64,000 nucleotides of DNA. Source: Candidatus Omnitrophota bacterium. GTDB lineage: Bacteria > Omnitrophota > Gorgyraeia > Zapsychrales > Fredricksoniimonadaceae. The DNA lies in assembly GCA_903908245.1 (NCBI GenBank), contig CAIVRE010000017.1, forward strand, positions 133-64,132, in the 5' to 3' direction. Within the stretch, counting starts at the first letter, position 1; the number at the start of each line of letters is the position of its first letter. Shown here piece by piece: positions 12,811 to 20,542 of the stretch. The position numbers and the translations under genes were made by a program. The notes under the pieces are model-generated. The model was not told the origin of the DNA and ran no database searches. It was given only the letters and a program-made list of their open reading frames with translations.

Positions 12811-12844
12811 AGAGGGCGTTCTTCGGGACGCTCTCTTTTTTTTC
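12811..12844 (+). terminator. rho-independent terminator after pilin paralog 2
   Basis: A 9-bp GC-rich stem (AGAGGGCGT / ACGCTCTCT) is followed by T9. It ends 4 nt before the start of the next pilin gene. Confidence 0.7.
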
Positions 12845-12847
12845 TAA

Positions 12848-13240
12848 ATGGACAAGAAGGGCTTTACAATAGTAGAAGTTATCGTTGTTATAGTCATTCT
12901 TGGCGTTATGGCCTCATTTGCCTTGCCGAAGCTCTTTGCGCAGAAAGAAAAGGGGATATTCTCGGAAGGCGTATCTGCGGCACAGACACTGTTCTCTGCT
13001 CAACAAAGGTATTTTCTGGATCATAATCCCAATTATGACACCAGTGCTCTATGTACGGCACTGGATGTTTCTATAGCACCGGTGAACTTTAACATCAATT
13101 GTAATACGGCAGGCTATGTTGCAGCGGTTGTTCGCAAGAACGGCCCTGTATATACGATCAGGACTACGAGTGCCGGAGTATATGACTGTCCTTCATGCTC
13201 CGGAAGTCTGGTATATCTTAATGCACAGGTCCCACATTGA
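12848..13240 (+). CDS. prepilin-type minor pilin/pseudopilin
   Basis: 130 aa with the motif MDKKG|FTIVEVIVVI and five Cys in the C-terminal half. Confidence 0.75.
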   Translation: MDKKGFTIVEVIVVIVILGVMASFALPKLFAQKEKGIFSEGVSAAQTLFSAQQRYFLDHNPNYDTSALCTALDVSIAPVNFNINCNTAGYVAAVVRKNGPVYTIRTTSAGVYDCPSCSGSLVYLNAQVPH

Positions 13241-17188: not shown

Positions 17189-18690
17189 TGAAACATTTTG
17201 TTTTCATTATTTTTATTCTTCTGACTATCTGGGCTTACTGGCCTTCGTTGCAGCACGCTCCGAAACACGATCAACTCGGATTTCTGGCAGATATGGCTTT
17301 GCGTGATAACGCATGGGACAGGACATTAGGCGCGTATTCATTGAACCGCGAGGCGCTCTTTATGCGCTCCGACCAGTTCTTGTTCCGTCCTTTATTAAAT
17401 TTATGGCTCACGTCCCAATTATTTGTGTTTGGTTACAATTTTACTTTATGGCAGGGGATGGCTATTCTACTGCATTTGCTGGTCGGGTTCTCTTTATACC
17501 GTTTATTGAATACCATCCGTTCCGGGATCTCCGCCGCAGTGGTCGCGGGATTCTTTTTATTGATGCTTCCCAATCTGCCTATGGTCGTTTGGCATAATAT
17601 CAGCGCTTATATGATATTTTGTGTATTTATACTGGAAGGGATCTTAAGATGGTTAAGGTTCCATCGTAACAGGGAAGACCTGTCCTCTTTATGGAGCTGT
17701 ATCCTGTTTTTGCTGTTGGGATCTTTTATTTTTGAAGCAGGCGTGGCCTTTTGTTTATGTTTCGCCGTCGTTTCGGCGTTCACGGACCGCTCCAGACAAT
17801 GGTTCATCCTGTTCCTGCTACCGATCTTTATTTATTTCTTCATTAACATTACGGATTTTCTTCTTAGAAATTCCATTATGCACCCTGAATCAGGCCGCAT
17901 CGCCAGCCGGGTATTTTCTGTCGATACTATTTTAAACGTGGTGATCGCGTTCAAATGGTTTTTGACGACTGGTATTTTTCTGAAAGCGGCGGAGATCATC
18001 CCGATCGAACGGGTGGCCGTCTCGCCGTTCACTTTGGATCTTCAATGGCCGTTCACGGCACTGAATGTATATGTTTTCAGAGGGCTTCTGGTATTGGGAC
18101 TTTTTTTTTCGGGGGTAGTATACTCACGGGCACACTTATCACCGGAAAAGCGCAAACTGATCGTTCTCTTGTTTTCCATGATCCTGAGCCTGACCCTCTT
18201 CATTTGTTTAGGGCGTGTTAATTCACGGGGGCTATTGACCGGGCTGGTCCTTAATTCCTACTATATCTATTTCTTTTGGGTGATAGCATTGCCGATGGCG
18301 TATGCTTTCTTGTCACTCGACAATATCAGCGCCCGTCCAGATGGGCTCTTTATCCGTACCGGAGCGTATTTTCTTTGCATGGGGATGATCCTTGTTAATG
18401 CCCTTTCGATCCAGGATGTGAATACGATGATCGCCAGGCTTGACAAGCCCCGAAGGAATTTCCTGGATGCGACAACTTCTTTTGTCAGCCAGCATCGTCA
18501 TGAAAAAGACTTTTCTTTCTTTGTGCCGCACACATGCCCGGGCAATTATGCGGGAAAATGGCTTCACAAAGCTTCCGATCCTCTTTGGAGAAGATATACC
18601 CTCGCGGAAGCGTTATATCCGGGATCTTATACTGTGATCAACCCGAAATATATTCTATGCAGATCAAAAGGACAGGGGAATGAACATTAA
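17185..18690 (+). CDS. polytopic integral membrane protein, hypothetical (possible GT-C-like)
   Basis: 501 aa, hydrophobic throughout, with no TPR tail. Its ends overlap both TMTC-like genes. Confidence 0.55.
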   Translation: MMKHFVFIIFILLTIWAYWPSLQHAPKHDQLGFLADMALRDNAWDRTLGAYSLNREALFMRSDQFLFRPLLNLWLTSQLFVFGYNFTLWQGMAILLHLLVGFSLYRLLNTIRSGISAAVVAGFFLLMLPNLPMVVWHNISAYMIFCVFILEGILRWLRFHRNREDLSSLWSCILFLLLGSFIFEAGVAFCLCFAVVSAFTDRSRQWFILFLLPIFIYFFINITDFLLRNSIMHPESGRIASRVFSVDTILNVVIAFKWFLTTGIFLKAAEIIPIERVAVSPFTLDLQWPFTALNVYVFRGLLVLGLFFSGVVYSRAHLSPEKRKLIVLLFSMILSLTLFICLGRVNSRGLLTGLVLNSYYIYFFWVIALPMAYAFLSLDNISARPDGLFIRTGAYFLCMGMILVNALSIQDVNTMIARLDKPRRNFLDATTSFVSQHRHEKDFSFFVPHTCPGNYAGKWLHKASDPLWRRYTLAEALYPGSYTVINPKYILCRSKGQGNEH

Positions 18691-20542
18691 TAAACGATCG
18701 ATCACAGAGTGCTTTGGTAACAGGGATTTCCTGTGGGCCTCTTTCTTTGCCGCTATTGTGCTGATCACTTTCTCTCCGCTGTCCCATGCCGCCTACATGC
18801 TGAATTTTGATGACAACACGCATTTCTTTTATAATTCGCTGGCTCGGGACGGGAATTGGCGCAATACGCCATGGGATATATTTTTTACGCCCGATACGGC
18901 CAATAAAACGTATATCCCTTTGACGATCCTGACGTATTTCTATGAGAATACGTTCTGGGGCTCACATCCATGGATATCCCACACGATCAATTTGATGCTG
19001 CATTTTGCGGTCTGTGCCGCGGCCTTTTTCTTCGCAAGGGCTCTTCGGTTAAGCCGCCTTGCGGCTTTTACGGGCATACTTCTTTTTGCCGTACATCCGA
19101 TGCATGTCGAGCCGGTCGCCTGGGTAACCGCGCGCAAGGACCTGTTATACGCTTTCTTTTATTTATTATCACTTCTTTTTTATCTGCGTTATACCGATTC
19201 CGGGAAAGGACGGGATTATATTTTCGCGCTCCTTGCGGCCGCCCTGAGCATCCTCTCAAAACCCATGGCATTAAGCCTGCCGCTGGTATTATTCCTTTTG
19301 GACTGGCACAGATCCCGTTCTTTTACCTGGAAGCTGATCCTCGAGAAACTGCCTTTCTTTCTGACCGTCGTCCCTTTGGCCTTGATCACATATATGATGA
19401 ATGCCAGGGGAACGAATTCTTCATGGGATTATTCCCCTTTATTGTGGGTCTGGTGTGCGATGTTCTATATAAAGAAATTCTTTTTCCCGGTCGATCTTGC
19501 CGCGGTGTACAAACCCATATTCTCGATCAATATATTTAATCCGGAATATGGCTCTGCTTTTATTTTATGCCTGGTCCTGTTATTTTTCCTGTGGTTCTGG
19601 CGCAGGAACAGGCTCGTCTTATTTACAGCAGGTTTTTATACCCTTTCCCTGTTCTTTATATGGCGGTTTGATTTCTATGATCTTACCTTTGTCGCAGACC
19701 GCTTTATGTATTTACCCAGCCTCGGTTTTTGTTTTCTTTTCGGGACCATTGTTGAAAAACTCCTCGGATCAAAATATTCCCGTTGGGGGTATCCGCTGCT
19801 TTTTGCGTTCCTGATACTGTTGATGGCGATGACCCACGCAAGAACGGGTGTATGGAAAGACAGTTATTCCCTTTGGAAAGACAACCTGAAGCATTACCGG
19901 TCGCCTTTTGCCTTGAACGCATTCGGAGAATCCCTTTTGGAAAACCATTCATTCAAGGATAACAAGGAGGCTTTTATCAAAGCCTTGAGTGGTTATGTCA
20001 AAACATCCCCCGCAAAGTTCAAGGCTGTTTTCGCCGGGTCCATTGAACGCAAGGTCAACGCCGCCCGAAAACTGACGGCGATCAAGGCTTTTTACGGCGC
20101 GTTAAGGCTCAGCCCCAATGACGAAGATGCCCTGGATAATGTCGGTTTCTTTTATGTTATGGCCAAGCAATACGAACGGGCGATCCCTTTCTTTAACCGC
20201 TGCATCATTCTTTCTCGCGGCAGCAACGGGACTTATTTCTACAATCGTGGATTGTCCTACGAATATCTCGGGGATATTGAACTTGCCCTGGTCGATTATG
20301 GCCGCGTGATCGCTTTAGGGAATGACGGGGTCATCCCGGCACGGCTCAACAGGGCGCATATCATGTTCCGCAAGGGGAATTATGAAGCGGCTTTGCTGGA
20401 TATTTATCCTGTTATCCGCTCATTCCCGCAATATCCTCCTACATATGAACTTGCCATAAAGATAGCCGAGGCCAAGAAAGACAATGACCTGATCATAAAA
20501 CTGAAAAAGTTCCGGGAGTATTATAAGAAACACGCGTTTTAA
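18680..20542 (+). CDS. TMTC-like GT-C membrane protein (DUF1736-type motif) with C-terminal TPR repeats, paralog
   Basis: 620 aa. The motif FAVHPMHVEPVAWVTARKDLLYAFFYLL plus a TPR C-terminus make it a paralog of the 15257 gene. Confidence 0.7.
   Translation: MNINKRSITECFGNRDFLWASFFAAIVLITFSPLSHAAYMLNFDDNTHFFYNSLARDGNWRNTPWDIFFTPDTANKTYIPLTILTYFYENTFWGSHPWISHTINLMLHFAVCAAAFFFARALRLSRLAAFTGILLFAVHPMHVEPVAWVTARKDLLYAFFYLLSLLFYLRYTDSGKGRDYIFALLAAALSILSKPMALSLPLVLFLLDWHRSRSFTWKLILEKLPFFLTVVPLALITYMMNARGTNSSWDYSPLLWVWCAMFYIKKFFFPVDLAAVYKPIFSINIFNPEYGSAFILCLVLLFFLWFWRRNRLVLFTAGFYTLSLFFIWRFDFYDLTFVADRFMYLPSLGFCFLFGTIVEKLLGSKYSRWGYPLLFAFLILLMAMTHARTGVWKDSYSLWKDNLKHYRSPFALNAFGESLLENHSFKDNKEAFIKALSGYVKTSPAKFKAVFAGSIERKVNAARKLTAIKAFYGALRLSPNDEDALDNVGFFYVMAKQYERAIPFFNRCIILSRGSNGTYFYNRGLSYEYLGDIELALVDYGRVIALGNDGVIPARLNRAHIMFRKGNYEAALLDIYPVIRSFPQYPPTYELAIKIAEAKKDNDLIIKLKKFREYYKKHAF

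Follow-up and report, generated by a model that had tools for sequence, protein, structure and literature searches.

In a 64,000-nucleotide stretch of an Omnitrophota genome (contig CAIVRE010000017.1; hereafter the window, numbered from its first letter), two tandem major pilin genes, A1 and A2, are followed by a strong intrinsic terminator. Behind it four minor pilin genes (min1 to min4), the 16S rRNA methyltransferase gene rsmE and three genes for polytopic membrane proteins (P1, P2, and P3) are packed end to end (Table 1). The locus makes up the distal portion of an Omnitrophota operon of the type IV pilus or type II secretion-like kind, and P1, P2, and P3 are GT-C fold glycosyltransferases, two of which carry a C-terminal tetratricopeptide repeat (TPR) domain. 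Gene content and gene order suggest a pilus operon with a read-through module whose GT-C enzymes O-glycosylate the pilins in the periplasm, a proposal for which confidence and doubt are about evenly balanced. A preliminary description of positions 12811-20542 had reported the terminator and the gapless string from the minor pilins to P3, and both are confirmed here by sequence, folding, and gene spacing. Its interpretation held in part: the terminator, the lack of room for a promoter, the GT-C fold, and the synteny stood, whereas rsmE gives no evidence of functional coupling and the claim of novelty did not hold.

The Terminator and the Gene String Behind It

The arms of the terminator, AGAGGGCGT (12811-12819) and ACGCTCTCT (12828-12836), include one G.U pair, and two inner pairs lengthen the stem to 11 bp, closing a UUCG tetraloop at 12822-12825. 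The T8 run (12836-12843) is followed by CTAA (4 nt) and then by the min1 ATG at 12848. A 9-bp stem with nine Ts, ending 4 nt before min1, had been described earlier; the terminator and its spacing are as given, but the run has eight Ts and the full stem is 11 bp. The A-tract upstream of the stem is able to pair with the U-tract. The hairpin folds with a dG of -23.8 kcal/mol (z = -4.4; 0 of 200 shuffles as stable) and is the strongest of only 7 hairpins with a run of at least six Ts in a custom scan of both strands of the whole window. A consensus terminator scan did not list the 12811-12843 hairpin, and it is suspected that the maximal stem, formed by A-tract/U-tract pairing, absorbs the T-run. 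Rfam gives no match at E <= 1 across 11400-21000, and so no known riboswitch or leader accounts for the hairpin.

A hairpin of differing sequence stands at the equivalent position in four related loci (L001, L002, L004, and L005; related loci are given L numbers), and in L001 and L002 the T-run likewise reaches the first minor pilin's start codon. The major pilin is followed, in some 30 of 37 related loci, by a gap of 50-170 nt that folds at -20 to -50 kcal/mol, and the minor pilin junctions of related loci measure -4 to +20 nt. The terminator is real, unusually strong, and conserved in position.

Downstream of the terminator, the minor pilin genes are separated by 10 nt (min1-min2), 7 nt (min2-min3), and 9 nt (min3-min4), and rsmE follows min4 after 2 nt. 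The remaining genes overlap, by 4 nt (rsmE/P1), 1-4 nt (P1/P2), and 11 nt (P2/P3). The largest gap between 12848 and 20542 is thus 10 nt, in agreement with the earlier remark that the genes abut or overlap without a promoter-sized gap. Shine-Dalgarno sequences are strong in the major pilin genes, and none is present at min1 or rsmE. Taken together, the recurrent hairpin position, the tight minor pilin junctions, and this Shine-Dalgarno contrast argue that the arrangement has been selected and is not accidental. The best sigma-70-like match of the region (20547-20575) lies 5 nt past the P3 stop codon, in the 64-nt gap before recA, and likely marks the end of the co-transcribed string. The ATG at 20619, which has GGGAGG ahead of it, is the more likely start of recA than the ATG at 20607.

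Each major pilin gene appears to have its own promoter-like region (11604-11631 upstream of A1; 12153-12182 and 12230-12258 upstream of A2) and a strong ribosome-binding site. The terminator after A2 would halt most transcripts from the pilin promoters at 12843, and the fraction that reads through would supply, in small amounts, the four minor pilins, RsmE, and the three inner-membrane GT-C enzymes. A stem-loop after the gene of an abundant subunit is known from pap (papA) and many pilA loci, where it leads to high major-subunit mRNA and low distal expression. The present design differs from the pap-like one in that the T-run abuts the next start codon and the read-through string includes a housekeeping gene and glycosyltransferases.

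The hairpin could instead be a 3' stabiliser or a full terminator of the pilin mRNA, with one or more promoters inside coding sequence driving the downstream module and no coupling by attenuation. A hairpin with T8 looks efficient, and rsmE, as a housekeeping gene, needs dependable expression; weak promoter-like sites (9-10 of 12 matches) lie within genes at 13000, 16314, and 18807, so that a promoter within coding sequence may exist, which tells against attenuation. On the other hand, promoter-like sites are not above expectation (21 compared with 16.6 +/- 4.6 in shuffles), and junctions are tight or overlapping all along the string. In addition, in the window, L001, and L002 the T-run comes up to the start codon of min1, which makes a min1 promoter downstream of the terminator impossible. 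Internal promoters are regarded as a rather unlikely explanation, and read-through attenuation is the arrangement that the lack of intergenic space and the conserved gene order suggest.

P1 and P3 Are GT-C Enzymes with a TPR Domain

That the three membrane proteins belong to the GT-C glycosyltransferases had been put forward in the preliminary description, and P1, P2, and P3 all turned out to have the GT-C fold. P1 and P3 are paralogs, with 42% identity over the membrane domain (439 aa aligned; E = 2e-73). In Pfam searches at E <= 0.1, P1 matches TPR families only, plus a weak PPTA repeat match over the TPR region, and P3 matches TPR families and PMT_2 (PF13231), the latter at 22.8 bits, under the cutoff of 26.1. 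The TPR matches lie at residues 460-600, and a PF13231 match is precomputed for the ortholog P0010. Pfam gives no PMT_2 match for P1 or P2, and NCBIfam adds no matches for any of the three. At the same Pfam threshold neither P1 nor P3 matches DUF1736, and none of P1-P3 matches a Wzy_C-type (O-antigen ligase-like) domain.

An AlphaFold model of P3, built from a 77-sequence alignment (pLDDT 93.6), has approximately 11 membrane helices followed by TPR repeats. The scores tabulated for this model against GT-C structures are 19.2 for ALG12, 18.3 for AglB, 18.1 for Pmt4, 16.9 for STT3B, and 15.8 for both Pmt2 and ArnT. Sequence searches of the PDB with P3, its N-terminal domain, or an 11-sequence profile returned TPR matches only or none. 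With the basic N-terminus placed inside, loop 1 and the TPR domain would be periplasmic. Loop 1 of P3 contains an aspartate pair (D44-D45) that does not vary among 11 sequences and hardly varies among 77, and P1 has WDD. Further invariant or nearly invariant residues of P3 are N75-K-T-Y-I-P-L-T82, R152-K-D154, K194, and D340-R-F-M-Y344. The identical P3 protein is found on contigs of up to 328 kb, and its homologs number more than 1469, nearly all of which are labelled Candidatus Omnitrophica or Omnitrophota.

A third TMTC-like paralog was considered at window 33247-34947, where a 566-aa open reading frame with several hydrophobic segments follows SecDF. It was rejected, as it matches neither the P1/P3 nor the P2 profile and has no Pfam match. 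In L007, a P3 paralog (P0014) occupies this position.

P2 Represents a Large Family without a Model

P2 has no Pfam or NCBIfam match. Its family is related to that of P1 and P3 (hhalign probability of 95% over the first ~165 residues), its loop 1 aspartate, D29, is invariant or nearly so, and an F-R-P-L motif is also present. A word-index homolog search returned only 19 relatives, wrongly suggesting a tiny family; an exhaustive profile search returned 2500, of which 545 have E <= 1e-30. None of the P2 relatives checked has a Pfam match in the membrane domain, and some bear C-terminal F5/8-type-C or ConA-like lectin domains, which connects P2 with carbohydrates. A scan of a genome collection with a narrower P2 alignment gave 4 loci, two of them known before, and a cluster look-up of distant P2 relatives produced no function names. 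Judged by these comparisons, P2 is a GT-C enzyme of an undescribed family, and it points to a large GT-C family without a Pfam or NCBIfam model.

The lectin domains of some P2-family members also bear on a different role for the locus. The pilus-like machine could export a polysaccharide, the role that has been proposed for the Hps pseudopilin system of cyanobacteria, and the GT-C enzymes would then build or modify the polymer and not the pilins. A match of min4 to the HpsC pseudopilin points the same way, but it is weak (E = 3.5e-4, far below the cutoff). No polysaccharide export or polymerase genes are seen in the operon, the TPR domains point to protein partners, and the glycosyltransferases of the Hps system belong to cytoplasmic GT2/GT4 types and are not known to include GT-C enzymes. 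Polysaccharide export is on this evidence quite improbable.

Conservation of the Arrangement in Related Loci

In six close relatives (identities of 70-79% for T2SSF, 74-80% for AlaS, and 94-96% for RecA), the order major pilin, four minor pilins, rsmE, GT-C block is kept, and rsmE lies 2-3 nt past the last minor pilin in those relatives that were read from gene calls. The GT-C genes shuffle in order and number among these relatives. The block reads P1-P2-P3 in the window and in L001, P2-P1-P3 in L009, and P2-P3-P2-P2 in L004. In L002, P2-P3 is followed by two large genes without a Pfam match, one of which weakly matches the P1/P3 profile. In L005, the block is P1, a second major pilin, P2-P3, and no recA block lies downstream. 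After the GT-C block of L005 (L005:14348-21902) there are genes for a HAD hydrolase, a TPP-dependent enzyme, several radical SAM/SPASM and B12-binding radical SAM proteins, and a methyltransferase, a group that may serve the biosynthesis of an uncommon sugar or substituent. The contig that carries L009 (DYOU01000022.1) is labelled Candidatus Elulimicrobium sp. (Patescibacteria group, NCBI taxonomy), at odds with its content, and its gene order is that of Omnitrophota metagenome-assembled genomes, with identities of 74% (T2SSF) and 87% (T2SSE).

More distant loci were collected by a metagenome scan with the platform protein, which gave 80 loci at 40-71% identity. Polytopic genes, defined by at least 7 transmembrane (TM) helices and at least 420 aa, were counted in the 25 of these that have at least 6 kb downstream. 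The operon tail holds at least one such gene in 18 of the 25, and 40 polytopic genes lie in 318 kb of downstream sequence vs. 0 in 340 kb upstream. They stand between rsmE and recA in L017, L051, L068, and L071, between the minor pilins and rsmE in L019, L022, L025, L026, and L089, and, as a polytopic gene with TPR repeats, between the major and minor pilin genes in L047. All ten of the distant polytopic genes that were checked with Pfam encode a membrane domain of ~400 aa followed by TPR repeats, and two additional genes from distant loci exceed the PMT_2 cutoff. The association of minor pilins with GT-C genes is therefore kept in close relatives and recurs with different GT-C subfamilies in distant loci.

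A soluble papain-family (Peptidase_C1) protein of ~246 aa recurs in the tails of many distant Omnitrophota pilus loci (L033:14692-15432, L038:7889-8629, L047:17026-17766, L055:4702-5442, L063:6044-6784, L077:18127-18867, L044:6169-6912, L089:10540-11301, and L058:10333-11226). The family was assigned by Pfam in the L047 copy, and the other copies were recognised from their common N-terminal sequence. The gene mostly lies directly after the last minor pilin and often just ahead of the GT-C/TPR genes; it is absent from the window and the close relatives.

rsmE as a Probable Passenger

The identity of RsmE is clear from PF04452 (Methyltrans_RNA; 139 bits, 1e-40), PF20260 (PUA_4; 61 bits), and TIGR00046 (153 bits vs. 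a cutoff of 41). Pilins, rsmE, recA, recX, alaS is the order conserved throughout the group, into which GT-C genes are variably inserted, ahead of rsmE or behind it. Because the rsmE-recA-recX-alaS block is conserved and GT-C genes are inserted on either side of rsmE, this gene is best read, from gene order, as a housekeeping passenger of the block. The GT-C genes would have inserted around rsmE, between the pilus cluster and the rsmE-recA-recX-alaS block. In six loci (L029, L038, L052, L074, L079, and L089) rsmE directly adjoins recA, and, given this adjacency and the variable GT-C inserts, the presence of rsmE in the string is no evidence of functional coupling. A tight operon, as this gene exemplifies, is no proof of common function.

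Comparison with Known Glycosyltransferases

The closest known system, going by its published description, is TfpW. TfpW is the pilin D-arabinofuranosyltransferase of Pseudomonas aeruginosa group IV strains (Pa5196/PA7), a protein of 646 aa for which 11 TM helices are predicted, with a DDX in periplasmic loop 1 that is essential, a motif rich in Tyr and Pro in loop 4, and a C-terminal TPR domain that is large and periplasmic; its gene is co-transcribed with pilA, and it is required for pilin arabinosylation (bioRxiv 10.1101/2020.04.19.049825). P1 (643 aa) and P3 (620 aa) resemble it in a length of ~640 aa, 11 TM helices, the loop 1 DD, the C-terminal TPR domain, and their location in a pilin operon. 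Where TfpW has the loop 4 motif YX6PFX7P, P3 has Y263-X6-P-V-X7-P, and P1 lacks the motif. Among the 77 family members, two have the exact motif, 53 have the consensus YX6PX4P, and 74 have FYX6P. The two systems differ in that tfpW directly follows pilA, whereas in the window the GT-C genes stand behind a terminator, four minor pilins, and rsmE; such a distal position, away from the major pilin, is departed from in L047 and L005. Furthermore, three GT-C genes are present here compared with one there, and no D-Araf precursor genes are seen. Pilin O-glycosylation had been thought in the preliminary description to be known only from PglL/PilO-type enzymes, a view that TfpW, a pilin-operon GT-C enzyme with a TPR domain that glycosylates pilin, contradicts. 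New here relative to TfpW-like systems is that the pilin-operon GT-C/TPR enzymes are multiple, operon-distal, and phylum-wide, and are joined by an undescribed GT-C family.

The eukaryotic TMTC1-4 O-mannosyltransferases (GT105; GT-C/PMT clan) likewise combine 11 TM helices with a C-terminal TPR domain that lies on the non-cytoplasmic side. Their motifs are M1 DD, M2 SHKSYRP, M3 RxD, M4 KE(T/Q)xxT, and M7 ERxxY (PMC7801869). By motif, P3 has the DD of M1, a similar NKTYIPL for the HKSYRPL of M2, R-K-D for M3 (RxD), and DRxxY for the ERxxY of M7. In contrast, only the lysine of M4 is kept (K-P-M instead of K-E-T/Q), the DUF1736 loop between TM7 and TM8 goes undetected by Pfam at the threshold given above, and the DW motif is not conserved; P1 and P3 are also bacterial and operon-linked to pilins. 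The label TMTC-like, which the preliminary description had used, is apt for the architecture and, in a comparison by motif, for four of the motifs, but DUF1736, the domain by which Pfam defines TMTCs, is undetected and PMT_2 stays below threshold in the Pfam search. With respect to the PMT_2/ArnT/PMT family (PF13231), P3 is sub-threshold, P1 and P2 have no match, and P2 is a separate family. PglL and TfpO (PilO) are similar as polytopic inner-membrane, pilin-modifying enzymes that use lipid-linked donors in the periplasm, and tfpO is also pilA-linked. They differ in that P1-P3 have no Pfam match to an O-antigen-ligase-type domain, and PglL and TfpO move preassembled undecaprenyl-PP-oligosaccharides en bloc. 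No publication was found that ties Omnitrophota pili to glycosyltransferases.

Proposed Function and an Alternative

The likeliest function of P1-P3 would be to O-glycosylate Ser/Thr residues of pilin stepwise in the periplasm, with sugars from polyprenyl-phosphate donors; the pilin is the presumed acceptor and a polyprenyl-phosphate sugar the presumed donor. The TPR domains would hold the protein acceptor, the pilin, as TfpW does for the group IV pilin of Pseudomonas. The presence of several GT-C enzymes per locus fits a stepwise periplasmic build-up of a short glycan.

Several observations weigh against a dedicated role in pilin glycosylation. In seven of the 25 distant loci the tail lacks a large polytopic gene, and in L029, L052, L074, and L079 rsmE adjoins recA. 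The upstream flank used in the downstream/upstream comparison is largely pilus machinery. Homologs of P2 and P3 at 30-42% identity occur in unrelated contexts, not beside pilins, and Omnitrophota are very rich in GT-C and TPR genes, as the number of P3 homologs attests. Two adjacent PMT_2 genes of the window (58153-59502 and 59505-60737; 35.8 and 28.0 bits, above the cutoff) are unlinked to the pilus. These and P1-P3 make five GT-C genes in 64 kb, and because GT-C genes are common in the genome, linkage alone is weaker evidence than it appears. No gene for a lipid-linked sugar synthase or flippase is seen in the operon, and the Ser/Thr enrichment of the pilins is modest: the S+T fraction is 0.22-0.24 in the last 45 residues compared with 0.16-0.17 in the middle.

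The GT-C genes may instead serve general envelope glycosylation, acting on other periplasmic or outer-membrane proteins, on lipid A/LPS, or on another glycolipid, and lie here just because insertion and tandem duplication are tolerated where the pilus operon meets the rsmE-recA block. The huge expansion of the family in the phylum, the two unlinked PMT_2 genes, and the paralogs in unrelated contexts are consistent with this. The GT-C genes also vary in number, order, and subfamily among loci (7 of 25 distant loci have none), and rsmE shows that unrelated genes can lie within the same transcript string. However, the contrast of 40 downstream with 0 upstream polytopic genes is a strong asymmetry, and the association recurs with different GT-C subfamilies. 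A pilin gene lies amid GT-C genes in L005 and a GT-C+TPR gene amid pilin genes in L047, and the TPR domain speaks for an acceptor that is a protein, as it is in TfpW and the TMTCs. General envelope glycosylation is, on balance, a possible but doubtful explanation.

If GT-C/TPR enzymes do glycosylate the pilins, TfpW-type glycosylation would be widespread in an uncultured phylum and not a curiosity of a Pseudomonas clade. Members of the Omnitrophota are thought to live in association with hosts or as predators and to depend for this on pili and secretion systems. A broader version of the proposal, in which a glycan built on the pilin itself in the periplasm is phylum-wide and each locus has 2-4 enzymes, TfpW/TMTC-like TPR enzymes and TPR-less GT-C enzymes of an undescribed family with over 2500 environmental members, expressed at low level by terminator read-through, is offered only tentatively and is less probable than not. 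Were it true, it would be a bacterial, phylum-wide counterpart of eukaryotic TMTC-type domain-specific O-glycosylation. The locus also offers tractable bacterial relatives for studying how GT-C enzymes are led to a protein acceptor by their TPR domain, a question asked for human TMTC1-4.

The Major Pilins

A1 and A2 are tandem duplicates with 88% DNA identity and 90% protein identity; L001, L002, L004, and L009 have a single major pilin copy at this position. The duplication (window 11572-12340) takes in the upstream region, with TTATTTGTTTTGTA before both copies and a (T/C)ATAAT box ~18 nt later. In L005, the second major pilin copy lies elsewhere, within the GT-C block. The enrichment of Ser and Thr in the pilin C-termini that the preliminary description pointed out is present, but at the modest level given above, and the peptides quoted for it belong to A1 (11698-12150), upstream of the interval it covered.

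A conserved segment, G-I-V-N-K-T-G-S-(S/T)-T, lies close to the pilin C-terminus (GIVNKTGSST in A1). The motif G-I-V-N-[KR]-T-G, with an N-X-T sequon, is common to the major pilins of the window (12090-12110 and 12735-12755), L001, L002, L005, and L009. N-[KR]-T as an N-glycosylation sequon was rejected: L004 has TKT, and no protein of the locus is PglB/AglB-like beyond the shared fold.

Gene Layout and Other Features of the Window

Every gene of the pilus cluster through P3 is on the + strand, and all six pilin genes of the window (two major, four minor) have the N_methyl prepilin motif above the Pfam cutoff.

Table 1. Features of the pilus locus, in window coordinates.
Feature	Position	Strand	Evidence
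PilM-like gene	4358-5968	+	
Secretin gene	7093-8589	+	
GspE/PilB-type ATPase gene	~8600-10336	+	
GspF/PilC platform protein gene	10340-11572	+	
Major pilin A1, 150 aa, GGAG Shine-Dalgarno	11698-12150	+	N_methyl Pfam match, partial GspG N-terminus
Major pilin A2, 151 aa, strong AGGAG Shine-Dalgarno	12341-12796	+	N_methyl
Intrinsic terminator	12811-12843	+	11-bp stem, UUCG loop, T8
min1, minor (pseudo)pilin 1, 130 aa, U-rich leader, no Shine-Dalgarno	12848-13240	+	N_methyl; orthologs in all related loci
min2, minor pilin 2, 132 aa	13251-13649	+	N_methyl; orthologs
min3, minor pilin 3, 113 aa, weakly GspI/XpsI-like	13657-13998	+	N_methyl; NCBIfam XpsI E = 3e-4
min4, minor pilin 4, 166 aa, weakly HpsC / Verru_Chthon cassette C-like	14008-14508	+	N_methyl; NCBIfam
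rsmE, 16S rRNA m3U1498 methyltransferase	14511-15260	+	Pfam, TIGR00046
P1, GT-C glycosyltransferase with C-terminal TPR domain, 643 aa	15257-17188	+	P3 paralog, WDD loop 1, TPR Pfam
P2, GT-C fold glycosyltransferase without TPR, 500 aa; family without Pfam/NCBIfam model	17188-18690	+	
P3, GT-C glycosyltransferase, ~11 TM helices and C-terminal TPR domain, 620 aa	18680-20542	+	
Sigma-70-like promoter match TGGACA-17-TATAAT	20547-20575	+	11 of 12 matches
recA, then recX, alaS	from ~20619	+	

Elsewhere in the window, a hairpin with a T7 run at 49130-49175 lies on sequence that resembles the 3' end of a tRNA (GGTTCGAATC-like T-arm).

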